Source: Rubripirellula sp. (lineage in GTDB: Bacteria; Planctomycetota; Planctomycetia; Pirellulales; Pirellulaceae). From it: a stretch of 64,000 bases of DNA. Positions 904-16,211 of the stretch are shown here, piece by piece. A program made the translations under genes and the position numbers. Below the pieces are notes generated by a model. It was not told where the DNA came from and made no database searches. It worked only from the letters and a program-made list of their open reading frames with translations. The stretch is from positions 116 to 64,115 of the forward strand of contig JBMHCO010000058.1 of the NCBI GenBank assembly GCA_049889895.1, in the 5' to 3' direction. Each line of letters opens with the position of its first letter. Positions within the stretch are counted from its first letter, which is position 1.

Positions 904-3900
904 CTAATCATCACCAAGCAAATCGATCGCTCGATCCACTTGCTGCTCTTCAAGATCAGACAACGATACAGAATGATCATTTTCGATCGCCCCACTTTGC
1001 AACAAGTCATTGGCAAATTGCTCAATGGTCAAGTCGACAGCAGGGGAATCCCAAGATACAGTCCCCGCGGTGAACTCTCCCTCTGCTACCGCTGAAAGAC
1101 TCCATCTGGAATCTCCTAGCTCCGAATCATCTTCAGACGGCGACCGAACGGAATCTTGATTGCCAGAAATCTCAGTTCCCGATTGGGGACTGTCGGTCGG
1201 AGATGCGATTGTCGGCGACTCCGCCTGGGCCTCATCCGAGTTGACTTGTTCACCTTCGCTGACCGCTTCACCCCTCAATCGCTGACGATTGATTTCATTA
1301 AGCACCAACAGAACATCGAGCGATGTGACTAATTGGTCTGCGTTAACGTCATAGGCGTAATCGTCATCCGTACGTCTGATGGGACCAGGCCCATAGACAT
1401 TCAAGTAATTGATGATGGCCAATGCATCGAGTGCTGTGACGCTACCATTTCGATCAACGTCGTAAGGATTCTCAAGATTGTGATGTGGATTTGCGTTCTC
1501 AGTGACCTCGATCACAAAAACTTCGGAAACCAAGTCAAAGACTTGCTCGCGATCCGAAACAGAGATCTCAATTTCAATCTCGGTCTGCGTATCACGCTCA
1601 ACCATTATCTGATCAAGCAATTTCAGAACGCCGTTGACCACTTCGAATCGGGAATCATTCACCGTCAAATCAAAGCGAGACGACGGAGACCCACCATCGA
1701 CCAGCACCGTCCCAACGATTGCTCCGAAGATATTTTCCGAGACATGGTTTCCTGAGAGGCTTAACCTTTGAGGCTGTTCGGGTACATCCATCACCTGCAC
1801 CAGCAGGGTCTCACGAACCGATACACTCGGGTCGTTTTCGCGAGTCGCGGTTACCACCAGAATAATCTCGGGTTCCGTTTCAAAATCGAGGTTAGCTCCT
1901 GCTTTCAGATAAAGGTGGTTCCCCTCAACTCGGAAACGGTCATCATGTACCTCCAAAATATGGTCACCGGCGTTGTAGGAATCCTGCACTGTCAGCAAAG
2001 TCAGCAGAACCTCCTCACTGTTCTCATCCACTCGAATCGCATCGGGATAAACCCTCAATTGAGGACCATCCGGGTCTTGCACTCTCAGTTGCAATGTCTC
2101 GTTGACGGAGCCTCCAGCATCCGGATCGAAGGCAGTGATCACCAAGTCGATGACGGTGTTTGTCTCAAAACTGATCTCACCACCGACAAATACAAGTTGC
2201 TCACCCACCACATCGAATCGTGAATCATCAACGACGAGGTGATGCTTCGTGGAATCAACGCCCGAAATCTGATCGGGATCTAAAACTCGGAAAGTACCGA
2301 CAATTGATCCCTGACTAATCGACTCGCTTACATCTGCCAGCATCCCCTGAATTCCACTCGGGAGATCTGCAACCGGCGTTACCTCGAATTGGACGGTTAC
2401 CGTTTCGGAGAGAGATGCACCATCGTGAACACGAAATTGAACCTCATCGACACCATAGAAATCTTGATTAGGCTCATAAGTAAGCGAACCGTCGAAACCG
2501 ATCAAAACGGTTCCATTCATTGCATGTCCCTGCTGAAGGACAATCAGTTCGTCGCCATCAGGATCGTATACCCCAGACATCAATTCGGAGGCACTGACGA
2601 CTAAGACGGAATCCTCTTGCAATGTCCAACTCAAATCTGCCGCGACTTCCGGTGGATAATTGTCTGAAAGAGGCACAACTCCGAAAGACAAATCGTCAAT
2701 CACTCCATCCGCTTCAACAGTTACCGTCAGTGAATCGGCATTGCGAAGATTGATTTCTAACAACCCATCAGCACCCAGAAGGAGCAGTGAACGGGAATCT
2801 TTCCAGATGAGATCGCGTATCTCGCCAACATCAGATAGATCCACGTCAAAACTGGCGAACGGTGCACTCCCCAACGCATCCCAAAGATCCAACCGATCGT
2901 GATCACTGCTGATGGTTGCTAGGCGTCCGTTAACTGAGTCGTATGCAATCGGCTCGGATACATTGCTGATCTGATTCAGCAATGCAAAATTTGAGTCAAC
3001 GTCGAACACAACAACAGAATCACTTGCATCCCGCGCAAGCAAGATGCCCGCTGCATCGTCGAATCCGAAAAAGCGATTCACGCTCGATAGCTGGTGCGTA
3101 GATCCCTCGATCACTTGCCCGAGCGAATCACTCCAAAGAGACACCGCGAAGTCACCCTCAACTTGCGAAGCCAAAACACTCCTTGGACCAGATGACGATG
3201 CCAAAACCATTGACCCAGTGGCAAGACTCGTGTCAGTCGCGACAATCGAAAACTCACCGGCATCCGAGTAGTCGATGAGGTGAACAATGGATTCACCCAC
3301 AGTCTCGCCCAACAGAATCCCTTGACCGTTTTGATCAATGGAAGACTGCCCCCAAGCAATCAAGGATTCTTCGACCGCTAGCCCCTGTTTCGTTACCGTT
3401 CCATCCGAAGGATTCAAAAGCCAGGAAGCTGCCTGCCCCTCACTGGCACCCAAAACCAAAAGCCTTCCGTCTGGCAGAAGATGAAAACGGTTCGCCGTAC
3501 CATCGAGGGCTACCTGACTTGTTTCGCTCTGCAGGAAGTCGCCAGATACAACCACTGCACCGTCTGAATCCTGCGAGCCGCTTGAATCAGCCGACCCTGT
3601 AGAAAGTGAAAACCAGTATTGATCTTGAGTAAGGATCGACTCCGCTTGGCTCTCACCGACCACAATCACACCAACATCAGCGGTCGCGGGGATCGTTTGA
3701 GATTGCCTTGCCCCACCGAGAAAAATCTCCAGCGAATATTCACCGGCATCAATGGCCTCGAACCGAAACTGACCATTGGAGTCAGAAAGAGCAATTGGTT
3801 CGGCAGCATCAAGAACTTGATTCTGGTTTAAATCTGCAAAAACAAGTCGGTTCGCGAGCCCAGCTTCATCAACTTCGCGGCGGAGAGTTTCGTTGGAATC

Positions 3901-4014
3901 ACCGAATATCTCCCCGGCAATCGCAGCCAGCACACAGCGATCGGTCAGTCGCTCGATAACAAGGCAACGACGAATTGCGTTTTGTCGTCTAGGTCGAAAA
4001 CGACGCTGCGCCAT
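904..4014 (-). CDS. Large planctomycete surface/extracellular protein: N-terminal planctomycete motif, SdrD-B-like domain, beta-propeller-like region, Ig/cadherin-like repeats, C-terminal dockerin
   Basis: N-terminus RRCLVIERLTDRCVLAA; IFGDSNETLRREVDEAGLANRLVFADLNQN (SdrD-B-like); NYPPEVAADLSWTLQEDSVL...DPDGDEL (Big_9/cadherin-like); dockerin DVDRNGSVTALDALAIINYLN...DVNADQLVTSLDVLLVLNEIN. Confidence 0.85.
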   Translation of the reverse strand: MAQRRFRPRRQNAIRRCLVIERLTDRCVLAAIAGEIFGDSNETLRREVDEAGLANRLVFADLNQNQVLDAAEPIALSDSNGQFRFEAIDAGEYSLEIFLGGARQSQTIPATADVGVIVVGESQAESILTQDQYWFSLSTGSADSSGSQDSDGAVVVSGDFLQSETSQVALDGTANRFHLLPDGRLLVLGASEGQAASWLLNPSDGTVTKQGLAVEESLIAWGQSSIDQNGQGILLGETVGESIVHLIDYSDAGEFSIVATDTSLATGSMVLASSSGPRSVLASQVEGDFAVSLWSDSLGQVIEGSTHQLSSVNRFFGFDDAAGILLARDASDSVVVFDVDSNFALLNQISNVSEPIAYDSVNGRLATISSDHDRLDLWDALGSAPFASFDVDLSDVGEIRDLIWKDSRSLLLLGADGLLEINLRNADSLTVTVEADGVIDDLSFGVVPLSDNYPPEVAADLSWTLQEDSVLVVSASELMSGVYDPDGDELIVLQQGHAMNGTVLIGFDGSLTYEPNQDFYGVDEVQFRVHDGASLSETVTVQFEVTPVADLPSGIQGMLADVSESISQGSIVGTFRVLDPDQISGVDSTKHHLVVDDSRFDVVGEQLVFVGGEISFETNTVIDLVITAFDPDAGGSVNETLQLRVQDPDGPQLRVYPDAIRVDENSEEVLLTLLTVQDSYNAGDHILEVHDDRFRVEGNHLYLKAGANLDFETEPEIILVVTATRENDPSVSVRETLLVQVMDVPEQPQRLSLSGNHVSENIFGAIVGTVLVDGGSPSSRFDLTVNDSRFEVVNGVLKLLDQIMVERDTQTEIEIEISVSDREQVFDLVSEVFVIEVTENANPHHNLENPYDVDRNGSVTALDALAIINYLNVYGPGPIRRTDDDYAYDVNADQLVTSLDVLLVLNEINRQRLRGEAVSEGEQVNSDEAQAESPTIASPTDSPQSGTEISGNQDSVRSPSEDDSELGDSRWSLSAVAEGEFTAGTVSWDSPAVDLTIEQFANDLLQSGAIENDHSVSLSDLEEQQVDRAIDLLGDD

Positions 4015-4543
4015 ACCAAAACCGCAAGTAAGGAAAGTGGATAAGTCGTATCAACGAGATCAATACGACCGATAGGGTTGGATCAGGCTACAGCTGAAAA
4101 GTTCCTCAAAAACCGTCCTAGCGAGGAAAAAACCATGCCTGGATGGCAAGATTCGAAAAAATCTTGTCCCACGGCCTCATGCGTACTGTCTATCATACGC
4201 TCGTTGACAGATTTTTCGCCTTCATTTTGTAGGAATTATCTTATCGCAATCCACAGGCCGCCTGCCGGTTTAACGCACTAATCGCCTGCGGTTCAACAAT
4301 TTGTCTTGTCGAGTTTGTAAATCCCCCGACAATGGCCGTGTCCCGAGCGATTTGCCCAAAGATGTTTGGGGATCATTTAGCGATGAAGGATTGTAAAAAC
4401 AGCGCAAAATCATTTACTGAGTTTGCTCTGAACTGAGTTCGACAACTGAAAAACCAAGTGTCCAGAACACACGGCGTGCAGTAGCTCGCTGTGACCGACC
4501 AACATTCACATTTTCAATTGCCTCACTTCAATTGACAAAAATC

Positions 4544-6568
4544 ATGAAACGATTTGCCCAGTTGATGATCCCCGTTTTTCTTGGGATTTCCTGTTCGGCT
4601 CGCCTCGAAGTTCATGCGCAAGGACTCAGTGGCGTTCCCCAGCGATTGGACGAAACGCTTGGACGACAACAGGTGGGAAATCAGCCATCGGGTAGTAGTC
4701 AACCTTCAAGCCAACAACGCCGCCAAGGCGGACCTGACCCGAGCTCTCTACCGGGGTACGGTGGCGGCTCGAGTGCCCCTCCAGGATCGGGCGGTTCTGG
4801 AGAGCAAATGCGTCGAGGCGGCGGGCCCGGTGCCGCACTTCCCGGATATGGAGCTGGTGGTTCTAGCTCTCCTCCGAGCGGCGGGCAGGGCATGAGAGGC
4901 TATCCGGGTGGCTCAAGCTCGCCACCCGGTTTAGGTAGCCCACAAGCGCCGGGACTCGGTGGACCACGAGGCATGGGGCCATCCGGGTCGGGCGGTGGAA
5001 GACAGGGATACGATCCTGGAATGGAAAGTGACCCCGATATGCAAATGCAAGGTGGCTACGGAGACGAGTATGGATACGGCGGACAAGGACAAGGCGTTGG
5101 TGGCCCAGCGGGAGGTGGAGGAATGAGTCCACTCGGCCCCGCTTTTGCATCGATGTTTGGTTCGATGGATCTGTCGCGACTGTTTTTTCCGTCACAGGAT
5201 ATCAACATCCAAGCAGGCCCAAAACTTAGAAACGAGGCAGAACAGGCGTTTCAAGCAGGCCACTACCCAATGGCTCTCGAGCTGATGTTCGCTCACATGG
5301 CGACCGAATACGACGACGCCAATGTTGACCTTCAAAATGTAAAATTCAGCACATTACTCAAACGCCCGGTTTGGAATGTGCGTTGGGGTGTATCGATCTC
5401 GGTGCGAGGCGATGATGTCGAAGACGCCTCACCAATCAAGGAAGGTGCCCGCCCCGCTCAAGGACTTGCATTTGGAGGCGGCCGTGGAGCTGGCCGCGGT
5501 GGTGTTGGAGACTTGGGCGGAGGCTATGAAGAGTCGATGGACCGCGATGAATTCGCGGGCGGTGATGAGCAGATGCAAATGCAGATGGAAATGGACATGC
5601 AGATGCAAGGTGAGATGGGAGGCTTCGGTGGGCTCGGTGTTCCGGGTGCACCCGGTGGTCGCGGTGGCGTCGCTGGTGCAGCACCTGCAGCTCCCAGCAT
5701 GCCGGAACGCAAAATGCTTTCCGATTCAGCAAAGCAAGAACTGAACCAGTATCTCGGCTTGGTCGAATCGGTTGTTGCTGATGAATTCAGTAAGCGATTC
5801 TCACAAGGCGATTTCGGTCCTCTGTTTACCACTGTCTCTGCACCGGTACAGATCGATTTACCGCAAACCAACGGATTCAATACCCAAGCAGCCCCTCCCG
5901 CTGCGGCACCTTCGATGAGCGTAGAACTCAATGACGCTTTGCTTGACGCCGGTGATCCTCTTCAACCCATGTGGTTACCAGGTATCTCTTATCTGGGGGA
6001 AGTGGATTCAAGCGAAACTGCACTCGAAATTGCAGAAGATCTACAGCTTGATCTCATTCTTCATTTCGATGTCAGTCTGAAACAGATCCGAGAAGGTTTG
6101 GTGCAGAATGTCTCACGTTGTCGCCTTCTACAAGTCTCACCTCCGGCGGATTCACAAGGTCGAAAGCGACACCTCCTTATCACATCTAAAGGGATGGACA
6201 ACATCGAATCTCAGCAACTTGCTGCGACCGACCGCATGACCGAGCGAGAATATGTCAATGAACAGCTCAACTCGCTTTGGAATCTAGTAGATCGAGACAT
6301 CAAAGTCGTCGATCTACCGCAACTTAGCGCAGAGGTCGCAAAACGCCGTATTTCTAGTCTGCTCTCCGGCCCGTCGAGTCGGTCACTTCGAACCTTAGCG
6401 GAAGTCCGCTATTACCAGTCAATGAACTTGATTGATGCAACGGACGTGGAACAACTCTTCCACATTGCTGGTGATCAAGACGGCTTGGTGCTCCTTTATG
6501 GCCCACTCGATCAACGAATCGAAATGAGCCGCAAATGGGCGGTAGAGGCGACTCGGCAAGAAGAATAG
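4544..6568 (+). CDS. Secreted Gly/Pro/Met-rich hypothetical protein with a folded C-terminal domain
   Basis: 678-aa ORF (track start 4532; ATG 4544 more likely). Signal-peptide-like MKRFAQLMIPVFLGISCSARLEVHAQ followed by two low-complexity tracts. Confidence 0.8.
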   Translation: MKRFAQLMIPVFLGISCSARLEVHAQGLSGVPQRLDETLGRQQVGNQPSGSSQPSSQQRRQGGPDPSSLPGYGGGSSAPPGSGGSGEQMRRGGGPGAALPGYGAGGSSSPPSGGQGMRGYPGGSSSPPGLGSPQAPGLGGPRGMGPSGSGGGRQGYDPGMESDPDMQMQGGYGDEYGYGGQGQGVGGPAGGGGMSPLGPAFASMFGSMDLSRLFFPSQDINIQAGPKLRNEAEQAFQAGHYPMALELMFAHMATEYDDANVDLQNVKFSTLLKRPVWNVRWGVSISVRGDDVEDASPIKEGARPAQGLAFGGGRGAGRGGVGDLGGGYEESMDRDEFAGGDEQMQMQMEMDMQMQGEMGGFGGLGVPGAPGGRGGVAGAAPAAPSMPERKMLSDSAKQELNQYLGLVESVVADEFSKRFSQGDFGPLFTTVSAPVQIDLPQTNGFNTQAAPPAAAPSMSVELNDALLDAGDPLQPMWLPGISYLGEVDSSETALEIAEDLQLDLILHFDVSLKQIREGLVQNVSRCRLLQVSPPADSQGRKRHLLITSKGMDNIESQQLAATDRMTEREYVNEQLNSLWNLVDRDIKVVDLPQLSAEVAKRRISSLLSGPSSRSLRTLAEVRYYQSMNLIDATDVEQLFHIAGDQDGLVLLYGPLDQRIEMSRKWAVEATRQEE

Positions 6569-6672
6569 CCCAATTGTCGCCTGATCATCTAACAAGGATA
6601 GAGTTCTCCTGAGACTCAATCGATTGATCACGACTGGCGTCGCAAATTAGAGCCAGATCAGAAGCTTTGGCA

Positions 6673-7722
6673 TCAGTCACGCGGGACTTGGATACTTCCG
6701 AGCAATCCGCGAAGCTCTTCATCAACGGAACGGCCTTCAATCTCCGCCTCAGCCGTTAACTGCACTCGGTGACGAAGGGCAGGAATGACGACGTCCACCA
6801 CATCATCGGGCACTGCGTAGTCGCGTCCATTGAACGCCGCCAAAGTGCGAGCACTTTGCATCAACGCCAATCCTGCACGTGGGCTCGCACCGAGGTGAAA
6901 AGATGGCCAATTACGTGTGGTTCGAACGATCTCATTGATATAGCCAACCAACGGATCCTCGATCAAAACCTTTCCGCACGCAGACATGACCTGAAGGATT
7001 AATTCGGGCGAAGCAACCGTCTTGACCTCTTTCTCGAGTCGATCATTGAGGTCGATCTGCAGGCTGTGCATTTTGAGAATTTCTGCTTCCTGCTCGGCAG
7101 TTGGGTAATCAACCTTGAGCTTGAACATAAAACGATCAAGCTGCGCCTCGGGCAGACTATAGGTTCCTTCGCTCTCCAGTGGATTCTGAGTCGCCATCAC
7201 CAAAAAGGGACGCGGCACCACATGGCTCGTTCCATCGACGGTGACTCGATATTCCTGCATGATTTCAAGTAGAGCCGCATGTGTCTTAGCGGGTGATCGG
7301 TTTATCTCGTCGGCGAGCAAAAACTGAGTGAACACGGGCCCGGCACGAAACTGAAACTCGGAGGTCTTCATGTCGTAGACAGGAGCCCCAGTGATGTCCG
7401 ACGGCATTAGATCAGCGGTGAATTGAATCCTGCCACAATCACACCCCAGAACTTTTCCAAGGGTTCTAACAAAGAGCGTCTTTCCCAACCCAGGAACCGA
7501 CTCGATTAGCACATGCCCGCCAGAGAATAGAGCCGTCAAAGTTCCTTGCACTAACTCATCCTGTCCAACGTACAGCTTAGACAATTCATTCGTGATCACC
7601 TCATAGAGCTGCTTGATTTTTAACAAAGTCTCTGGAGGGATCGCAGCGGAAACAGACGCACGCATCTCTTGCGGAGAACTTGCTGGAGGATTTCCACTGT
7701 TTTGTTGAGTTTCGTCGTTCAC
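6673..7722 (-). CDS. moxR: MoxR family AAA+ ATPase
   Basis: Walker A ESVPGLGKT, RIQFTADLMPSDITG, Walker B LLADEINR, ATQNPLESEGTYSLPEAQLDRF, GASPRA. Confidence 0.95.
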   Translation of the reverse strand: MNDETQQNSGNPPASSPQEMRASVSAAIPPETLLKIKQLYEVITNELSKLYVGQDELVQGTLTALFSGGHVLIESVPGLGKTLFVRTLGKVLGCDCGRIQFTADLMPSDITGAPVYDMKTSEFQFRAGPVFTQFLLADEINRSPAKTHAALLEIMQEYRVTVDGTSHVVPRPFLVMATQNPLESEGTYSLPEAQLDRFMFKLKVDYPTAEQEAEILKMHSLQIDLNDRLEKEVKTVASPELILQVMSACGKVLIEDPLVGYINEIVRTTRNWPSFHLGASPRAGLALMQSARTLAAFNGRDYAVPDDVVDVVIPALRHRVQLTAEAEIEGRSVDEELRGLLGSIQVPRD

Positions 7723-7871
7723 GGCCGAACCTGCGTGATAAATAAATGTTGAGCAGTCACCAGTCTAAGCAATGAAGCTTTACCTCTCTACCAATCGTCC
7801 GCAGTTACTTCGAACTTACACCTAAACGAGAGAGATCATGAGGGAAAACATCACGAGCAAAATCTAACTCT

Positions 7872-9242
7872 CTAAATATCCTCTGAAATATCCCCTGCTG
7901 CTTTATCGGTAGATGCACTAAGAACGTTAGCGTTATCAGCCTGCAGTGATTGGGCATACTCCTTTAACCTTCGACGAGCGTAAGTTTCACCTTTGGCTTT
8001 CTTGAGCAAAGCTCCAACAGCATCAAGGTGATGGCCGAAGTCAGATGGTGACTCTCGCTGAAGTTTTTTCGCGCGTCCAAGAATTGGAATCATGATCAAG
8101 CAGACCACTCCTCCGAGAAAAATCCCGTGCATTGTGATGAGACTTAGCGGCCATTCGGTCAACATCTCCATACCTGTTTTTACTGGACGCATCGAGACAT
8201 TATTTGCAACCGCTATCGGTACCCAGTCACTCTTTAGAAATCCAACCACGGGAGCGTCCTCCGTACTAGCACGACCCGAAAGAATAATTTCATCAGCAAG
8301 ACATCGATTCCAAGGTCTTGATAACGCGTAGTTGGTGAGCAGAGATCCGCCGGCAACCACCAAAATCTTAGAACTACCCCAGTTATTTGACCGAACCTGC
8401 ATCACGATGGGTTCCCGCCGACCGGTTTGCAGTAGTGGTTCAACGATCACTTTTGTTGTCGTGCGTGGCGCGCCCCAGTCGGCCATCAACTCTGAACCCT
8501 CCGCAGTGAGTGAGCCCGGCCCTGTTTCCCGAAACTGAATATCGCTGTTCCATGTTCCACCAACCTGTTGCGAGGAAGCCGTCTTTGGACTTGATGCCTG
8601 GACGCGATACTCGATGAAACTCGTGTGAGGTGATTCATAGGAAACACCGCCAGACGGAAACGAGGTGGGGGAATCAGCAATGGCAAGCATATCTTCCTCT
8701 TGCCCGAGCGAATTGTTTTCATCGAGCCACGGCCCTGTGAGTTCGCCAAAACTCTCGCCCCAATCCAAAGGCATCACCTCAAACCAGCCGTTGGCGTCCC
8801 ATGGTTTACGATTGAGACGCCACTGTAGTTGCTGGTTTTTCCCTCGAACTTCTCGACGACGATACTCAACCAATTGATCAGGCGGTGCTGACCCCGCAGC
8901 TCCCGACCAATAATCCACCTCGCTGCCACTGTCCGGCACGACAAAAACAAGCGTCCGGTCGCCTTGAGATAACCAAGACTCCATCCACTGGGTGACATTT
9001 TGTGAGATGGGATGAAAAACTTTCGGTGTCCAAACAATCACCTCTGTAGCTCGTACGCGATTGCTGAGCCGCGTGATATCGCGACTTCGATACCCCGCAT
9101 TTTCGTATGCCAAGCGATAACCAGCGAACCCATTCAAACTGGATTTTGCCACCGCTCCTCGCGATTCACCATACTCGGTTCTTAGGCGATCACATCCGCA
9201 CAAGCCGATCAAAAAAACGAACGCTATACTCCATCGGTTCAC
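7872..9242 (-). CDS. DUF4350-like domain membrane/lipoprotein
   Basis: Lipobox-like IGLCGC; SLNGFAGY; GSSKILVVAGGSLLTNYAL; C-terminal TM followed by DFGHHLDAVGALL; position in the operon is typical. Confidence 0.7.
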   Translation of the reverse strand: MNRWSIAFVFLIGLCGCDRLRTEYGESRGAVAKSSLNGFAGYRLAYENAGYRSRDITRLSNRVRATEVIVWTPKVFHPISQNVTQWMESWLSQGDRTLVFVVPDSGSEVDYWSGAAGSAPPDQLVEYRRREVRGKNQQLQWRLNRKPWDANGWFEVMPLDWGESFGELTGPWLDENNSLGQEEDMLAIADSPTSFPSGGVSYESPHTSFIEYRVQASSPKTASSQQVGGTWNSDIQFRETGPGSLTAEGSELMADWGAPRTTTKVIVEPLLQTGRREPIVMQVRSNNWGSSKILVVAGGSLLTNYALSRPWNRCLADEIILSGRASTEDAPVVGFLKSDWVPIAVANNVSMRPVKTGMEMLTEWPLSLITMHGIFLGGVVCLIMIPILGRAKKLQRESPSDFGHHLDAVGALLKKAKGETYARRRLKEYAQSLQADNANVLSASTDKAAGDISEDI

Positions 9243-10087
9243 CCTGCCACCTCCGTTCTTTGCGTCAACTGCCGCTCAAGCATCTCATTCTCCTGCCAGC
9301 AGCGAGTAAAATCAGACGCCTCAATGACCCTCCGGCCAAAGTAGCTGCTTTCAAACAATTTGATGACGCTCGCAAACCATTCCGAGACCTGCGGATCAGC
9401 AAATCGAGTTTCTTTCAAATACTGACGATTCGTTTTACCTCGATTCAAACGGAGACAAGCAGAACGATCGAGAATGAGTAATTGGTATGCAAAAAGGAGC
9501 ACAATCGCCTGCTCAAAATCACCTGACTGCATCATCCGCTCTGCTTCTGCGCGATAGTCTAGATTCTCTCGCTGTAATTCTTGAGGAAGATGCTGAACTC
9601 GCTCCAACAATCGCTCGTCGGAAGCCAAGGACTGATCAACCTTACGACGCCCCCCAGCTAATCCGTCCTTTCCCAAAATCCATGCGACCCAGACCCCAGT
9701 ACCAACCACCAACGCGGCAAGTAAGCACCAAGCGACTAGGTTGGTGTAGGTAAATGCCTTTCCAAAGAAATTGAAATCTGGAATCGCACTAGGGTTAGGT
9801 GCGTTAACTGATTTGGGTACCGGTTCAGCCTGAGGTAACCAATCGCTATCGCGATGAATGGAATCGTCCTGTGATGTTTTCACCTCAACAGCAACTACTC
9901 GATCAACTTCACCGTCATACCAAACCGAATCAGAAAGCACGTCCGAGGATGGCGACTGTACCACATCAGACGCAATCCCCTGACTCCCATCTGCTGCCGG
10001 CGTTCTGTGAGCAAGAGCAGCCATTAGGATGCACACACCAAGGCATCGCCAAAAGTGACACCAATGCCTAGAGATGCATGAGTTCAT
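9239..10087 (-). CDS. DUF4129 domain membrane protein
   Basis: EAERMMQSGDFEQAIVLLFAYQLLILD...GKTNRQYL...FESSYFGRR is the DUF4129 signature; one TM upstream. Confidence 0.85.
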   Translation of the reverse strand: MNSCISRHWCHFWRCLGVCILMAALAHRTPAADGSQGIASDVVQSPSSDVLSDSVWYDGEVDRVVAVEVKTSQDDSIHRDSDWLPQAEPVPKSVNAPNPSAIPDFNFFGKAFTYTNLVAWCLLAALVVGTGVWVAWILGKDGLAGGRRKVDQSLASDERLLERVQHLPQELQRENLDYRAEAERMMQSGDFEQAIVLLFAYQLLILDRSACLRLNRGKTNRQYLKETRFADPQVSEWFASVIKLFESSYFGRRVIEASDFTRCWQENEMLERQLTQRTEVAG

Positions 10088-11069
10088 CTTGCCCCCTCCG
10101 CTTCTTCGTTTCTTTCACTGCCTGCTCGCGTCGATCCACTTGAGGCAATGAGCTTTGAAATTGCCGTATCACCTCTGCTCGGATCAACAATTCCACATCC
10201 CAACCTTCCAAACGCAATCTTGTGTCTAAATAAAACAACAAACGAGCAACAACACTGATGGCAGAAACCATCCACAGACCCGCCGGGAAAATCATCAGTA
10301 ACACGGGAAGATTTAGAAAGTCCCAACGAAGAAACAAGACACCCCGAAAGGACATCAACGTCATGACCAACGCGATGCTGAGCACAAAATAAACCACCCC
10401 CTGAATGAAAAACCGCCCCCCATTTTCACCGGACGACTTCCGGTGTAGATGATTCGATCTGGTTCTCAGCGTGATCCCCAGATTGCCACCTTCACGAGAT
10501 GCGTTACCTCGCACGGGACATTTCTCCAGTAAAATAATCTCAGGGACGAATGGATTCATTCCGCGTGTGAAAAACAAAACAAACAGCACCAGTACCGGAA
10601 ACAGGTAATCCCAAAAAAACGAAGCGGGTGAGCCCCAGCGAATCAGGAGCAACAGCATTACCGGGAGCACCAAACTCCGCATCATCAGCACCCAAAAGAT
10701 TGCGCTGCGTAGCTTCCACAACTCTCTGATGACCTCTGAACAACGAAGTCTCTCTTCAAAGATCTCACGGCCGAGCCAGAGTGTCACAAGCGAACCGGCT
10801 ACCGGTGTCTGCAGAGTCACCAAGACAGCCATCCAAGTTAAGTAGCGGTAAAGTTCATAGGTCGCCTCTTCATCAGCGATACCCAAACGTGCCTCACCAA
10901 TGGGTATCCAAGCAAGAAGAGCCAGATCCATTGCGACCCAGATGGCTGCACCGGTCAAGAATCCGATAATGATGGACCGCGGATGCGTCCGCAACATTGC
11001 GAGGGTCAAATCCCCAACTTCCGACATCGAACGGGGACGCATCACCAATTTGGCTTGATCAAGTTGCAT
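10068..11069 (-). CDS. Multi-pass membrane protein of the RDD/SpoIIM/MoxR cluster (GPDPase-membrane-domain-like)
   Basis: Likely start MQLDQAKLVMRPRS (ATG 11069). Starts RPRSMSEVGDLTLAML and ends LFYLDTRLRLEGWDVEL; about 5-6 TM segments. Confidence 0.75.
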   Translation of the reverse strand: MQLDQAKLVMRPRSMSEVGDLTLAMLRTHPRSIIIGFLTGAAIWVAMDLALLAWIPIGEARLGIADEEATYELYRYLTWMAVLVTLQTPVAGSLVTLWLGREIFEERLRCSEVIRELWKLRSAIFWVLMMRSLVLPVMLLLLIRWGSPASFFWDYLFPVLVLFVLFFTRGMNPFVPEIILLEKCPVRGNASREGGNLGITLRTRSNHLHRKSSGENGGRFFIQGVVYFVLSIALVMTLMSFRGVLFLRWDFLNLPVLLMIFPAGLWMVSAISVVARLLFYLDTRLRLEGWDVELLIRAEVIRQFQSSLPQVDRREQAVKETKKRRGQDELMHL

Positions 11070-12096
11070 CCCAAATCTCCGACTGGTCTTCGCGCGGAGC
11101 GGGAAGAGTTTGGGAATCTGGAAAACCAAGGATCACGAAATAGAAACTGATCAAACCAGATGAGAAAATCGCCCAAAAGGCTTTAATGACATAGGGAGCC
11201 GGGGACGGAGACAAGAACCCCTCGGTGAATGCAGCGAGAACAAATAGCATCGCCGAGGCCGCCATGATTGGTACGGCACGTGAAGCATTTTGCCGAATCG
11301 AGTCCATTCGAGTTAGACCACCGGTTCGAAAAAGTCCCACACCAAGTCTCAGCCCTGCACCCGCCGACAATGCAATCGCAGTTAATTCGAAAGGCCCGTG
11401 AGCTGTGACAAACTCAAAGAAATGGTCACCGGCAGCCCCATCGGACCTCGCCATGTAACCAAAGACCGCTCCTAGCTGGATCGCGTTAGAGGCGAGAACA
11501 TACAGACACGGAATCAGTAAGATCCCCCAAGCAAAACAGCGCAAGCCAATGCCGGTATTGTGCTGAATGTAGAAGCCGGACATCGTCACATAATGATCAA
11601 AGCTCGCATTAAGCGGCTGCTCAAAACTCTCATCCGCCTGCTGCAAAGCCTGCTGACCGGCAATCATTTCTGCGTAACCCGGAAAGAGTTGATCTTGGAA
11701 AGCGAGGTACATGGAAAGACAAAATAAGCCGAAGAAAACGATTGCTGAAACTCGGACGCATGGGTCACCAAAAATCCGCTTCGGTGCTTCAACAAATAGA
11801 ACCTGAATCCAGTCGCTCCACTCAATACGATGTGCCCGATACAGTTGATTATGAGATCTCGCGACTAGACGATGAAGGTACGCAACCGTTGCTGGCGGCA
11901 TTTGGTAAGCATCAGCCAAAGCGAGATCAGCGCAGGCAGAGCGGTAGAGAAAAGCAAAACGTTGAATCCGCTCCGCGCCTGAAACCTCACGATTCGCACC
12001 GCGGCGAGCCTTACCGGCCAATTCCAATTCATCGCACAATCGCTCCAGTTCTTCCCACGCTGGCTGGCGATCCTTCATCCGCTTTGCAACTCTCAC
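11059..12096 (-). CDS. Stage II sporulation protein M family (SpoIIM/DUF95) membrane protein
   Basis: WEELERL...YRSACADLALA...YLHRLVARSHNQLY; YIQHNTGIG; AHGPFELTAIALSAGAGL; AAFTEGFLSP. Confidence 0.9.
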   Translation of the reverse strand: MRVAKRMKDRQPAWEELERLCDELELAGKARRGANREVSGAERIQRFAFLYRSACADLALADAYQMPPATVAYLHRLVARSHNQLYRAHRIEWSDWIQVLFVEAPKRIFGDPCVRVSAIVFFGLFCLSMYLAFQDQLFPGYAEMIAGQQALQQADESFEQPLNASFDHYVTMSGFYIQHNTGIGLRCFAWGILLIPCLYVLASNAIQLGAVFGYMARSDGAAGDHFFEFVTAHGPFELTAIALSAGAGLRLGVGLFRTGGLTRMDSIRQNASRAVPIMAASAMLFVLAAFTEGFLSPSPAPYVIKAFWAIFSSGLISFYFVILGFPDSQTLPAPREDQSEIWDAT

Positions 12097-13073
12097 TGCA
12101 CCACCTCCGTTTGGTCACTTGATGGATCATGGGTAACATGATCCAGACGATCACTCTGAGCTTGATCTTTACTGATTTCAACGGCAGCAAACTGACGCAG
12201 GGGGCTGTAGCCACGCAGCGGCGAAAGATCCACTTCATGCCGATTTTCGCCGCTGCAAATCTCGGTTCTTAGGAACGCTTGATAGTACAGCGTATACATC
12301 ATCAAGTCGGGATCGATTTCCGGTCGAAAGCCAATCTGATCCAGCACGGGTTCAATCAACCGCTTGGCAATTTCTCGACGACGCGTCGAGGTCATCTCGG
12401 TGCGACGCTCCACATACGCCGCGAGGGCACGTGCCATGCTTCTTGAGATCCGATAGTCAGCGGGAAGATAGGTAGCCAGAGCCGGAACTCGCTTGTCGTC
12501 TACCTCATCGATTGGAATGCGCCAACGTTTTTCGTCAACAACTACCATGGTGCCCGCCGCAAGATCACCCAACCTCTGCATACGCCTCGTTAACATCATC
12601 GTCGAAAGTCCCACCAAGCCAGTGGGCACCATGTAAATTGGCGGCACTCCCTCAGCTAGGTTGCTGATCGCATACATCGGTGCGAGATCAGCGATTCTCA
12701 GGAGATTACGCAGCAAGGCACCGCGACCGGTCACCGGTCGACCGGTGACTTCAATTACTCGCGTGCCAGTAACCCATTTCCCAATAGTTCGACCATTGAA
12801 ATAAGTCTCCATCAGTGTCCCGTAAAACCAACTGATCACGAAGTAGACCAAAAAGGTTGCCGCAATCAAAAACGGACCGACCGAAAACACACTCAAGAAG
12901 AAACCGGAGAGGTAGACCGGCAAAAGGATCAAAAAAATGAGTGCCCAACGAGCAACAAAGTCAATCAGATAGGCGGGCAAACGCCGAAAAGGACCCGCCA
13001 ACTGATAATCGAACGCAATATTCTCTGGCGTGATGACTTCGATCGTGGTGTCGAGAGGTCGATAGGCAACCAT
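12093..13073 (-). CDS. RDD family membrane protein
   Basis: Likely start MVAYRPLDTTIEVITPENIAFDYQLAGPFRRLPAYLIDF; GRTIGKWVTGTRVI; LLRNLLRIAD; QRLGDLAAGTMVV. Confidence 0.92.
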   Translation of the reverse strand: MVAYRPLDTTIEVITPENIAFDYQLAGPFRRLPAYLIDFVARWALIFLILLPVYLSGFFLSVFSVGPFLIAATFLVYFVISWFYGTLMETYFNGRTIGKWVTGTRVIEVTGRPVTGRGALLRNLLRIADLAPMYAISNLAEGVPPIYMVPTGLVGLSTMMLTRRMQRLGDLAAGTMVVVDEKRWRIPIDEVDDKRVPALATYLPADYRISRSMARALAAYVERRTEMTSTRRREIAKRLIEPVLDQIGFRPEIDPDLMMYTLYYQAFLRTEICSGENRHEVDLSPLRGYSPLRQFAAVEISKDQAQSDRLDHVTHDPSSDQTEVVQ

Positions 13074-13217
13074 GAATGGAGTCGCATCCAACTGAGTCAA
13101 ACTAACCGCTAAGGACCAACCCACTGCCGCTTCATCGGGTTCGAATTTATCCTATCTGTATGCTAACCGCGAACAACGAAGTAATGGAGATTGAGTCTCA
13201 GCGGAACGTCCAACTTT

Positions 13218-15128
13218 TCAAAAAAGACCAGATATTTTGTCGATGAAGGCCCATCCCCCCGCCAAGAAAAGGCCAGCACTAGAAACCCACAATCCAAAAT
13301 CCCAACCGAGAGATGGCATTAACCGCTCATCGCTTCGACGATACCGGAAATACAAAGCCGCTACAGCTAACATCGGAAGCATGATCGCCTGCATCAATCC
13401 ACTGGCGAGAACGAGCTGTTTTGGTGCACGCACAAAAACATAGACCGTCAAACACAAAAGAGGTAACAGAGCGCAATAAAACATCAACCAGAATCGTTGC
13501 TTTCCTTGAGTTCCCGCCGAGCATCCGAACACTCGCATCGCATCGGCACACACTCGAGCGTGAGAAGCATTTGCGACAAAGAATGTCGAATACAACACAG
13601 CAAACGCACCGACTAAGAAAATAGCGTGTGCAGCCTCACCGAAGACAGGGACGTACATTTCCGCAAGTGTACGAACCATCTGAGAACCCTCGGGATTCAG
13701 CCCCGCTCTCTTGAGAACCGCGGCACCGAGCAGATAGAAAGCGACGGTTGCAAACGTGTAAACGATCATCGATGCCCATGCATCCCACCGCATCACGCGC
13801 AACCAACCACGAGCCCGCAGAGCCCAAGCGTCGGAGCCATCACGTGGCCCAACCCACCGCGCGTAACCTTTCTCCAAACACCAATACGGGTACTGAATCA
13901 ACTCCGTCGCTCCAACACCGATGATCCCAAAAGCCATCAACGCAGTGGACAACCCAGCAGATGTGCTCGGGAGCCGAAAGCTCATTCCGTAAACCACATC
14001 ATCCCAACTAACTCGCCACTCGGGAAGAGTTTGAAGATGAACCAGATTTGCGATCGTCACGAACGTAAATCCAGCAACCAAAACCGTTGAAAAAGCCTGC
14101 ACCAAGCGATAGCGGCCCAACACAAGAAACACCATGCTGGTGAAAGTGATCAAGGTCGCCCACCAAACCTCATCACTCGCTCTAGGAGGCCCCCTAAGCT
14201 TGCGTTCGGTAGCGGATGCTCCTGACAACCAACTCTCCGCTTGGGCCAACCGCACTTGATCGCTAACGGAAGCCACTTCTTGCTCTCGATCACGTATTTG
14301 CTCACGTGCAACACGAACACTCGCGGTGGCCTGTTCTAAGTCAACCGCTGCTTGCTCGTACTCTGGTTTCGCAAGATAGTCTTTCTCGATTACTTCAATC
14401 GCCTCGGACAACTCGTCAAAACGTTTTTGCCAACGAGTCACATCCGCACCAGCCTCATCACCGAACTCTTCACGCGCTCGCGAGATCAAACTCTCGGTCA
14501 CATTTTTCTCAATCAATAAATCCTGGTAATGATTATGTAACTTGCCTGCTTTGGTAATCGGAAAACTCATGGTGACTGCCTGACCAACGCCACCAACAAT
14601 CCCTCCAAGTTGAGCGAGGGAAACCAAAAACATCACAAGCCAATACCAAAGAATCCAATTCACACGAAATCGAGGCCCAGGCACCTCGTTCAAGCCGTCC
14701 AGCGTCGTCCTGCCGTGCACGAGGGTGTAACGCCCAAACTCAACCTGTGCGAAAACCTTGATCATGCAGCCCACAATGATCAGCCACATCAACGTAAAGC
14801 CCGCTTCAGCACCCACAGCGGTCGTAGCAATCAATTCACCCGAACCAACAATCGATCCCGCGATAATTAAACCTGGCCCGAGCTGCTTGATAATTCCCAC
14901 AGTACTGGTTGGTGGATCAAGGACCCCAAGCGATTGCTCCACCAAACCGCTCTCACCAGAAGAGAACTTATCCCCCGTCAGGCCCGAATGATTTCCACTT
15001 TGATCCATGCAACCCTCGGCAACTGATACACCCTGATTTCCCAGCACTCGTTTCCCAGCACTCGCATCATAACTCATTACAACACACCAGATTTCCAGTG
15101 AACATGCATTGAGATATAACGGGAACAA
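13218..15128 (-). CDS. Nramp-related (APC superfamily) transporter with a coiled-coil insertion
   Basis: LGPGLIIAGSIVGSGELIATT; FGIIGVGATELIQYPYWCLEKG; GAFAVLYSTFF. True start is probably 15077 or 15008. Confidence 0.85.
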   Translation of the reverse strand: MFPLYLNACSLEIWCVVMSYDASAGKRVLGNQGVSVAEGCMDQSGNHSGLTGDKFSSGESGLVEQSLGVLDPPTSTVGIIKQLGPGLIIAGSIVGSGELIATTAVGAEAGFTLMWLIIVGCMIKVFAQVEFGRYTLVHGRTTLDGLNEVPGPRFRVNWILWYWLVMFLVSLAQLGGIVGGVGQAVTMSFPITKAGKLHNHYQDLLIEKNVTESLISRAREEFGDEAGADVTRWQKRFDELSEAIEVIEKDYLAKPEYEQAAVDLEQATASVRVAREQIRDREQEVASVSDQVRLAQAESWLSGASATERKLRGPPRASDEVWWATLITFTSMVFLVLGRYRLVQAFSTVLVAGFTFVTIANLVHLQTLPEWRVSWDDVVYGMSFRLPSTSAGLSTALMAFGIIGVGATELIQYPYWCLEKGYARWVGPRDGSDAWALRARGWLRVMRWDAWASMIVYTFATVAFYLLGAAVLKRAGLNPEGSQMVRTLAEMYVPVFGEAAHAIFLVGAFAVLYSTFFVANASHARVCADAMRVFGCSAGTQGKQRFWLMFYCALLPLLCLTVYVFVRAPKQLVLASGLMQAIMLPMLAVAALYFRYRRSDERLMPSLGWDFGLWVSSAGLFLAGGWAFIDKISGLF

Positions 15129-15224
15129 TTCAAGGAAAAACGCACGAGGCGAATCGCAATCCTTTCATCTCCGATTCGATACATCGCACCCCAGTGAACT
15201 CTGAGACCCGAGGAATTTGTCAAC

Positions 15225-16211
15225 GTGATGCGAAAAACAGTACGATTCGGGATTCTCGGAACGGGGCGTATCACACGGCGTCTGATCGCGGACCTACAGT
15301 CGACCGACGGCGTGGAAGTGAGTGCAATTGCAAGCCGAGAGATGAGCCGAGCACGGTGGTATGCAGATCAGCATGGAATTCCAACCGCTATTGAGGGATA
15401 TGAAAACCTCTTAAAACGCGAAGACATTGATGCAGTCTACATCGCGTTACCCCCAGCCCTCCATCACTCACTCGCCTTGAGCACCGCAGAAAACCACAAG
15501 GACCTGCTCTGCGAAAAACCTCTAGCAGTAAACCTCAACCAAACAGAAGAGATCGAAAAAGCATTCACTGAGAACCGGTGGCTTGACGCCACAGGATGGC
15601 TCCATCACCCGAGAACCGATGCTTTTTCAACATGGCTCAGCGACGGTTCGCTAGGCCAGATCACACATCTCAGTGCTGCATTGTCCTTCCACCAACCTTT
15701 CGTCTCGGATGACCACAGATTGAAAGCCGAATTAGGCGGAGGCTGCCTCCTTGATCTAGGCTGGTACGTCTTTGGATTTGCTCGTTTCTTCTGCCACAAA
15801 AACCCGATCGCAATCTACGCGGATGCTCTCAATCAAGCCGGCGTACCTCAACGCGTCAATGCGATGCTTTGGTTCGATGACGATACAACCGCTACCCTAT
15901 CATGTGGATACGATACCGCCACACGAAAGTGGTTTGAAGTTGCGGGAAGTGCCGCATCCCTCATCTGCGATGACTTCACCCGCCCTTGGCATGACAGACC
16001 CACAAGGTGCTGGATTCACGAAGCGTCTGGAAAAGTCCAAAGCCACACCTTTGAGGGGAACCAAGAACGCAAAATGATTGAAACTTTTATCAGCGAAAAA
16101 CCTCTGACCCGCTTCCATCAACAGGCAACCGACACGGCGAGGATCATTCACGCAGCGTCCAAATCCATTGAACGCGGAACAAAAGTATTACTCGCTGACT
16201 TGGGACTATAA
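15225..16211 (+). CDS. Gfo/Idh/MocA family oxidoreductase
   Basis: VRFGILGTGRI; DAVYIALPPALH; LLCEKP; GGGCLLDLGWY. Confidence 0.93.
   Translation: MMRKTVRFGILGTGRITRRLIADLQSTDGVEVSAIASREMSRARWYADQHGIPTAIEGYENLLKREDIDAVYIALPPALHHSLALSTAENHKDLLCEKPLAVNLNQTEEIEKAFTENRWLDATGWLHHPRTDAFSTWLSDGSLGQITHLSAALSFHQPFVSDDHRLKAELGGGCLLDLGWYVFGFARFFCHKNPIAIYADALNQAGVPQRVNAMLWFDDDTTATLSCGYDTATRKWFEVAGSAASLICDDFTRPWHDRPTRCWIHEASGKVQSHTFEGNQERKMIETFISEKPLTRFHQQATDTARIIHAASKSIERGTKVLLADLGL

Follow-up and report, generated by a model that had tools for sequence, protein, structure and literature searches.

Within a 64,000-nucleotide stretch of a Rubripirellula sp. contig (JBMHCO010000058.1, positions 116 to 64,115; hereafter the window), we examined six co-directional minus-strand genes at 6673-13073, delimited from the open reading frame (ORF) listing and by direct reading of the sequence. 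In order of transcription, they encode an RDD-family protein, a SpoIIM-like protein, a six-helix membrane protein for which we use the name Mid, a DUF4129 protein, a DUF4350-like protein, and a MoxR-type AAA+ ATPase. This tightly packed operon of five membrane proteins and a MoxR ATPase is real, and it is the Pirellulaceae copy, single in the genome, of a widespread and known module rather than a new system. [quoted passage not shown] Our analysis establishes the composition of this module, its co-inheritance, its dedicated MoxR lineage, the relocation of the adaptor gene, the modified MIDAS, the GIFT-like fold of one component, and a pattern of natural fusions and splits. An earlier note, made from the DNA sequence of the window, had described the six genes as a coupled envelope unit of no established function; its interpretation is partly supported, as it is right in outline, misses an adaptor encoded in trans, and overstates the novelty of the system.

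Conservation of the module and its MoxR

In a profile search with Mid, positional equivalents were found in 22 of 301 sampled Planctomycetota genomes, and 20-kb contexts were then compared by scanning their six-frame ORFs with hidden Markov models built from the module proteins. The order RDD-SpoIIM-Mid-DUF4129-DUF4350-MoxR-DUF58 recurs in 20 other Planctomycetota loci, and gene order is kept in 24 loci. The DUF58 gene lies directly 3' of MoxR wherever the contig permits, including in a locus from the window's own family (L047). Partial or rearranged versions are found on a Rhizobium chromid (DUF4129-DUF4350-MoxR-DUF58-SpoIIM-RDD), on a Catenovulum chromid, where a protein fusing Mid to a DUF4129-like half sits in the order RDD-SpoIIM-[Mid+DUF4129-like fusion]-DUF4350-MoxR-DUF58, and on a Nocardia replicon, where DUF4129, MoxR, DUF58, RDD, and SpoIIM genes occur together. 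In BLASTP comparisons with the Catenovulum proteins, the window's DUF4350-like and DUF4129 proteins gave no significant match and Mid matched only in its N- and C-terminal motifs; this motif match is supported by hhalign of Mid against the Catenovulum fused protein (probability 77%, E 2e-5). The earlier note's statement that the neighborhood recurs across phyla is borne out by the Planctomycetota loci together with the Rhizobium, Catenovulum, and Nocardia replicons. In control searches, the genomes of Caulobacter vibrioides and Bacteroides thetaiotaomicron also gave matches to the SpoIIM, DUF58, and MoxR profiles, and to DUF4350 when the E threshold was loose; Planctopirus limnophila is a further candidate carrier of the module.

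The module MoxRs, 26 sequences, group in one clade (support 96/85), and none of the 11 MoxR paralogues in the window's genome falls within it. MoxR is the next gene after DUF4350 in all 24 loci with the exception of G319, a genus of the same family, and even the unlinked G319 MoxR falls inside the module clade. With its order kept across these loci and its MoxRs forming a clade of their own, the unit is co-conserved and has a MoxR of its own, as had been proposed.

Natural fusions and splits mark the joints of the module. The RDD and SpoIIM genes are fused into one ORF in six other Planctomycetota loci. The Mid family comprises 931 representatives at E<=1e-3, and among the 150 best of these there are 18 Mid-DUF4129 fusions and 3 Mid-DUF4129-DUF4350 fusions; the fused Mid proteins are collinear with the separate ones. 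G319 is split at a joint other than the one seen in the window's genome, with RDD-SpoIIM-Mid-DUF4129-DUF4350 at 2.48 Mb (L077, G319:C1:2470001-2490000) and a MoxR-DUF58 pair at 4.20 Mb (L074, G319:C1:4195501-4209500), 1.7 Mb apart. Taken together, the fusions and the two kinds of split suggest three sub-assemblies, which would be RDD·SpoIIM, Mid·DUF4129·DUF4350, and MoxR·DUF58.

Relocation and modified MIDAS of the DUF58 adaptor

The window's copy departs from the canonical form in the absence of a DUF58 gene directly downstream of moxR. No DUF58 was found on the window's contig, and likewise none in the closest related loci (L009, L010, and L012). The component is present in trans: a whole-genome scan recovers one DUF58 protein with the module architecture of two N-terminal transmembrane (TM) helices and a C-terminal DUF58 domain, encoded at G000:C101:24776-26227. 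Aligned along its entire length with the linked DUF58 of L047, this protein shows 48% identity, and when module DUF58s are scored against it, every one of them, even those of Rhizobium, Catenovulum, and Nocardia, scores above all paralogues from its own genome. As the C101 protein is the module orthologue, the adaptor has been relocated and not lost, and loss of DUF58 in this lineage, which we had considered, is rejected. The description of the unit as six genes consequently falls short, since its canonical form has a seventh, the DUF58/vWA adaptor, which here lies on another contig.

We surveyed 81 genera of the family for the co-occurrence of Mid and the module DUF58. Both are present in 71 genomes and both are absent from 6, while Mid occurs alone in 3 and the module DUF58 alone in 1; retention and loss of the two loci go hand in hand (Fisher p = 1.7e-6). 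Where both occur, the genes are linked at a distance of 4-5.3 kb in 39 genomes, lie on the same contig 1.7-4.6 Mb apart in 7, and lie on different contigs in 25, a class in which the fragmented assemblies outside the window's sub-clade cannot prove unlinking. Within this sub-clade, defined by a Mid match of E <= 1e-106, the two genes are unlinked in 14/14 genomes that have both, and the fifteenth (G328) has no DUF58 match. The C101 DUF58 gene (locus L067) sits downstream of a same-strand aldehyde dehydrogenase gene, from which 54 bp separate it, an arrangement kept in G365, G316, G324, and G348. The same AIRS-Aldedh-DUF58 context in these four and in the window's own genome (G000) indicates one ancestral relocation, and the comparison thus points to a single move of DUF58 in the ancestor of the sub-clade. 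From the conserved Aldedh-DUF58 arrangement, it also follows that DUF58 may use the promoter of the aldehyde dehydrogenase gene and may now be transcribed from it.

The module DUF58s are distinguished by their metal site. In all module-type DUF58s aligned, DxGRxM stands in place of the MIDAS motif DxSxS (the C101 copy reads DCGRMM), and the beta4 SD is replaced by T/S-N/H in nearly all of them, with TN in the C101 copy and SD retained in Rhizobium. The canonical DxSxS...T...D MIDAS of the NorD, CbbO, and ViaA type is therefore absent from the module DUF58, whereas the eight DUF58 paralogues of about 300 aa in the same genome keep both DxSxS and SD (TD in one). A sequence search of the PDB with the module DUF58 gave no match.

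Other MoxR and DUF58 genes were observed in the same genome, where full-length MoxR paralogues number 12 and DUF58-like genes about 15. Four of the MoxR genes have no adjacent DUF58 and four of the DUF58 genes have no adjacent MoxR. The DxSxS motif is also missing from four long, MoxR-adjacent DUF58-like proteins (C88, C116, C138, and C73:19817). Near the end of contig C173, an orphan DUF58 gene that encodes the canonical DxSxS precedes a 624-aa ORF, which matches DUF4350 weakly (E 5e-4); the two may be another pairing of a GldG-like protein with DUF58.

The operon, its proteins, and its neighbors

Table 1. Coordinates of the operon genes, of neighboring genes in the window, and of DUF58 loci elsewhere in the genome (G000).
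Feature	Coordinates	Strand	Description
RDD-family membrane protein	12093-13073	minus	326 aa, operon gene 1; PF06271 E 5.4e-18
SpoIIM-like polytopic membrane protein	11059-12096	minus	345 aa; PF01944 E 1.4e-28
Mid (our name), six-TM all-helical membrane protein	10068-11069	minus	333 aa; no Pfam family
DUF4129 bitopic protein	9239-10087	minus	282 aa; PF13559 E 5e-5, 23.7 bits
DUF4350-like protein	7872-9242	minus	456 aa; PF14258 E 0.042, homologues, fold
Gap between DUF4350-like gene and moxR	7723-7871	minus	149 bp
MoxR-type AAA+ ATPase, soluble	6673-7722	minus	349 aa; PF07726 AAA_3 E 2.3e-60, AAA_lid_2 PF17863 E 9e-22
Nramp-like gene	13218-15128	minus	
ORF of no Pfam or NCBIfam family	4532-6568	plus	678 aa
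Cadherin-like/Big_9 repeat protein	904-4014	minus	1036 aa; dockerin type I domain
Module-type DUF58	G000:C101:24776-26227		two N-terminal TM helices, C-terminal DUF58 domain
Aldehyde dehydrogenase and DUF58 (G000:C101)	L067:10282-11832 and 8773-10227	same strand	relocated-DUF58 neighborhood
Orphan DUF58 and 624-aa ORF	G000:C173:28392-30697		near contig end

The junctions of the operon were read directly in the sequence and agree with those described in the earlier note. The RDD stop and the GTG start of the SpoIIM-like gene overlap by four bases (GTGA, 12093-12096), as do the DUF4129 stop and the GTG start of the DUF4350-like gene (GTGA, 9239-9242), while the SpoIIM-like stop overlaps the Mid ATG by 11 bp (11059-11069) and the Mid and DUF4129 genes overlap by 20 bp (10068-10087). 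The space before moxR, given previously as 150 bp, measures 149 bp. At the outer boundary, the longest ORF for RDD extends to 13124; the Met at 13073 aligns across eight orthologues, which upholds 13073 as the start. The Mid start at 11069 is fixed by MQLD, found at or near the N-terminus of all 24 aligned Mid proteins (24/24), and a GGAG-like motif lies a few bases 5' of each start codon in the operon. Four-base overlaps are the commonest junction in bacterial operons, so that the coupling is real, yet unremarkable when taken alone. The related loci L009, L010, and L012 keep this pattern of junctions, including the 11-bp SpoIIM/Mid overlap in all three; at the DUF4350/MoxR junction, however, L010 and L012 have a 4-bp overlap in contrast to the 149-bp gap observed here. 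A promoter and terminator scan of 6400-15400 returned nothing above shuffled expectation, with no terminator in the 149-bp gap, and the predicted RNA fold of the gap is no better than that of shuffled sequences (z +1.44). The gap marks the point at which the module naturally divides into two halves, as it is exactly there that G319 is split.

The first two proteins belong to recognized families. The RDD protein consists of an RDD domain followed by a Lys/Arg-rich C-terminal region of about 150 aa, which is probably cytoplasmic. The SpoIIM-like protein, product of the genome's only SpoIIM-family gene, has a basic N-terminal domain of about 105 aa (DUF8413 in precomputed Pfam annotation) and about five TM helices; its homologues, with 61-67% identity across Pirellulaceae, carry PF01944 and PF28475. 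No match was obtained when this protein was used in a sequence search of the PDB.

Mid, by contrast with these, has neither a Pfam nor an NCBIfam match. Its alignment reveals three conserved motifs, an N-terminal MQLDQ..R.R, a loop motif PFxPEIxLLExCP...RSxxLH, and YLDTRxRLEGWxVEL close to the C-terminus, with invariant Glu, Cys, and His residues in a cytoplasmic loop. The AF2 model (pLDDT 79, pTM 0.74) is an all-helical bundle of six TM helices, and a fold search of the PDB with this model returned generic helical-bundle noise, including G-protein-coupled receptors and ABC exporters (best E 0.23). Judged by its predicted structure, Mid has no solved structural relative.

The DUF4129 protein is laid out as an N-terminal signal-anchor, a periplasmic segment of about 90 aa, a TM helix, and a cytoplasmic helical DUF4129 domain. 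It has positional orthologues in all module loci and is collinear with the C-terminal half of the fused Mid-DUF4129 proteins. The DUF4350-like protein has a lipobox (LCGC), a periplasmic alpha/beta domain of about 340 aa, a C-terminal TM helix, and a cytoplasmic helical tail of about 70 aa, and both G16 and C17, the lipobox Cys, are invariant in the alignment. Its full-length homologues (35-54% identity) carry PF14258, and their UniRef name is DUF4350. The AF2 model of this protein, built from 36 sequences (pLDDT 75.9), has as its top PDB match the N-terminal GIFT domain of IFT52 (5fms_A, E 5.3e-4, probability 1.00), with moderate similarity (TM-score 0.48 on the target). The IFT52 GIFT domain is the eukaryotic counterpart of GldG. 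Because the homologues carry PF14258 and the predicted fold agrees, we uphold the DUF4350 label.

MoxR shows Walker A (GLGKT) and Walker B (LLADE) motifs in its translation, and its nearest solved structure is 2r44 (E 1.7e-74); the match to bpMoxR is weak (32.8 bits versus 202.6 bits for AAA_3). A topology sketch based on hydropathy and the positive-inside rule places the Mid motifs, the DUF4129 domain, the DUF4350 tail, the SpoIIM N-terminal domain, and the RDD C-terminal region in the cytoplasm, and the GIFT-like domain with its invariant lipobox Cys in the periplasm.

Three neighboring genes of the window were also considered. The Nramp-like gene lies immediately upstream of the operon and runs in its direction, whereas in L009, L012, L075, and L076 it diverges from RDD and runs with a GFO/IDH/MocA gene. 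This difference in orientation looks like a single-gene inversion; a search for inverted repeats flanking the inverted gene found none that were convincing. Gene and operon adjoin only within the window's sub-clade and in none of the 20 other module loci. This is local synteny, and we reject the Nramp-like gene as a part of the module. On the other side, the 678-aa ORF is convergent with moxR; it has no homologue beside the module at any other locus and is therefore not part of it. The 1036-aa protein is probably a surface adhesin unrelated to the module.

Known relatives, proposed mechanism, and alternatives

The closest published counterparts are mycobacterial and archaeal. Neighboring, co-regulated mycobacterial genes encode a transmembrane protein, DUF4350, MoxR, DUF58, a SpoIIM-like protein, and RDD (PMC8191103), and the Rv3689-Rv3695 cluster (moxR2 = Rv3692, with orthologues in M. 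chelonae, M. abscessus, and Mycolicibacterium smegmatis) has the same protein families as the window's module. In that cluster, DUF58 is encoded in cis and RDD/SpoIIM are transcribed separately, whereas in the window, coupling joins all five membrane genes in a single direction, with DUF58 located elsewhere. Rv3694c and Rv3695 co-purify with a divisome protein (PMC8093794). [quoted passage not shown] The archaeal arCOG01314 (DUF4350)/MoxR/vWA sets share with our module a membrane-anchored DUF4350 with a GldG-like flavodoxin-fold ectodomain beside MoxR and vWA (PMC5898192), but they include Ig-like S-layer proteins as well and have no RDD, Mid, or DUF4129. In view of this work and of Rv3689-Rv3695, which were already known, the earlier suggestion that the locus is the window's best candidate for an uncharacterized system was too strong. 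Likewise, the statement that no function is established holds for the literature we searched, although the neighborhood itself had already been published as a predicted complex.

More distant relatives share parts of the module. DUF4129 is the cytoplasmic C-terminal domain of TgpA-type transglutaminases. Like the module, the MoxR-DUF58-TgpA and Bat (BatI/BatII/BatA-E) operons combine a MoxR and DUF58 core with envelope membrane proteins, but the module has no transglutaminase core, vWA protein BatA/B, or TPR protein, only PF13559 on the DUF4129 protein, and its DUF58 is of another subfamily, one that is MIDAS-less. In its predicted fold, the DUF4350-like periplasmic domain matches GldG and the IFT52 GIFT domain, and a weak ABC_transp_aux signal is present in a bona fide DUF4350 orthologue. 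The likeness to the GldA/GldF/GldG transporter is one of fold only, as no ABC domains, and thus neither its ABC ATPase nor its ABC-2 permease, were found in the operon, its flanks, or related loci. The SpoIIM-like protein belongs to the same Pfam family (PF01944) as B. subtilis SpoIIM of the SpoIID-SpoIIM-SpoIIP (DMP) engulfment machine, but it adds the cytoplasmic DUF8413 domain and comes from an organism that does not sporulate. We exclude a DMP role of the sporulation type, in agreement with the earlier note, since neither SpoIID (PF08486) nor SpoIIP (PF07454) is matched anywhere in the genome, whose completeness is 94%. SpoIIM serves as a polytopic scaffold to which bitopic partners that have extracytoplasmic domains are recruited (PMC5898192), and by analogy, it offers a plausible model for how the DUF4129 and DUF4350 proteins could be recruited here.

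For the ATPase, a guide is offered by a group of systems, NorQ/NorD, CbbQ/CbbO, and RavA/ViaA, in which a MoxR-class ATPase and a vWA-fold partner likewise act on a membrane protein. In NorQ/NorD, a finger of the vWA domain enters the hexamer pore, while acidic residues of the membrane target dock on the MIDAS face, and the working model has force passed on to the target (PMC9976466, PMC13036017). The intact MIDAS of NorD (DxSxS-T-D) binds acidic residues of NorB and enables Fe insertion, whereas the module DUF58 has DxGRxM, has usually lost the beta4 Asp, and is anchored in the membrane. We propose the following mechanism for the module. RDD·SpoIIM and Mid·DUF4129·DUF4350 would form an inner-membrane complex whose best-conserved surfaces (the Mid motifs, the DUF4129 domain, the DUF4350 tail, the SpoIIM N-terminal domain, and the RDD C-terminal domain) face the cytoplasm, with its output, the lipid- and TM-anchored GldG/IFT52-like domain, facing the periplasm. 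By analogy with NorQ/NorD and other MoxR/vWA pairs, a MoxR hexamer would grip the vWA domain of DUF58 and pull on it with ATP, which would assemble the membrane complex or switch its state. As DUF58 is membrane-anchored, has lost the MIDAS ligands, and carries a conserved Arg instead, it is probably a resident subunit that binds its partner by means of a fixed Arg-acid contact and of the two TM helices it carries, and a transient, metal-bridged contact of the kind made by a visiting chaperone is less likely. The cellular role is likely to be the biogenesis, export, or remodeling of an envelope component.

Several points weigh against this reading. All protein-protein contacts in it are drawn from gene order, fusions, and co-occurrence, and a MIDAS-less vWA domain might fail to engage MoxR in the manner of NorD. 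Among the family labels given earlier, RDD, SpoIIM, and MoxR are firm, but PF13559 on the window's DUF4129 protein (23.7 bits) falls just below the Pfam cut-off of 24.8, and PF14258 is not significant on the window's DUF4350-like protein alone (E 0.042), so that this label needed indirect support, including a GIFT-like match that is itself moderate. Fragmented assemblies outside the sub-clade, among the 25/71 different-contig cases, detract from the tally of unlinked genes, and the literature that we searched contains no functional study or experiment on the module.

Among the alternatives, a dedicated secretion system, in which the polytopic proteins form the conduit, the GldG-like domain handles periplasmic cargo, and MoxR supplies the energy, was proposed for the archaeal DUF4350/MoxR/vWA neighborhood (PMC5898192) and fits both the mostly membrane or periplasmic location of the components and the GldG/IFT52-like fold, GldG being an accessory to a transporter. 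We consider it unlikely, however, as the genes flanking the module vary between loci, beside it there is no conserved gene for a cargo, secretin, ABC ATPase, or permease, and the Ig-like S-layer partners of the archaeal sets are absent here; moreover, MoxR ATPases are known as remodeling chaperones rather than translocation motors (PMC9976466, PMC13036017). The commonest proven role of MoxR/vWA pairs is metal or cofactor insertion (PMC9976466, PMC13036017), and MoxR and its vWA partner could load metal into a module membrane protein or a neighboring transporter or enzyme, as in NorQD, CbbQO, CoxDEF, and the chelatases. The adjoining Nramp-like transporter gene, here and in four relatives, and the invariant Glu, Cys, and His of Mid would suit such a role. 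Against it stand the confinement of the Nramp adjacency to one sub-clade, the missing metal-binding MIDAS residues of the module DUF58, and the absence of any metalloenzyme conserved in the module, which together make metal insertion improbable.

The two remaining alternatives find still less room. MoxR-vWA pairs do act in threat-sensing and defense systems (PMC7159879; PMC13622651), such as the conflict systems of Kaur et al. 2020 and the Esr pathway of oral Actinobacteria, and the weak bpMoxR match of 32.8 bits hints in the same direction. A role of this type is nonetheless very improbable, because the module proteins contain no beta-propeller sensor, kinase, FHA, or effector domain and 0/7 are matched by PADLOC. 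The module is also single-copy and vertically inherited, with a MoxR tree that follows it, and occurs in 74/81 genera of the family, a distribution that fits a housekeeping function and not a defense island. Finally, the 149-bp gap and the lack of a vWA partner in cis could be taken to mean that a membrane-protein operon merely neighbors an unrelated MoxR gene. This can be set aside almost entirely, given that MoxR follows DUF4350 in all loci but G319, where it moved together with DUF58, that the DUF4350 and MoxR genes overlap by 4 bp in relatives, and that the module MoxRs are a clade apart.

Returning to the remodeling module, we also entertain, as a decidedly speculative extension, that it represents an unrecognized class of AAA+-driven inner-membrane machine rather than an ordinary pair of chaperone and client. 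In such a machine, MoxR would be permanently docked through a MIDAS-less, TM-anchored vWA protein, with the Arg of DxGRxM replacing the metal ion, and would mechanically drive a complex of Mid·DUF4129·DUF4350 and RDD·SpoIIM; an envelope component would thereby be moved or remodeled across the inner membrane. If so, the natural fusions and splits would define its sub-assemblies, and the sub-clade, in which DUF58 is encoded in trans, would naturally test whether the module can dispense with stoichiometric co-expression of the adaptor.

The copy described here is no new kind of system, but its split organization is unusual. What it contributes is the full parts list of the module, including the un-named six-TM family Mid, and the recognition that DxGRxM separates its vWA adaptor from ordinary DUF58 proteins and finds the adaptor even when it is unlinked, while the natural fusions and splits suggest which module proteins touch each other. 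Among functionally uncharacterized bacterial gene clusters, the module is one of the more widespread, extending over Planctomycetota, Proteobacteria, and Actinomycetota (including M. tuberculosis) and in part to Archaea, and a function for it would fill a gap both in envelope biology and in the roles of MoxR/vWA motors at membranes.

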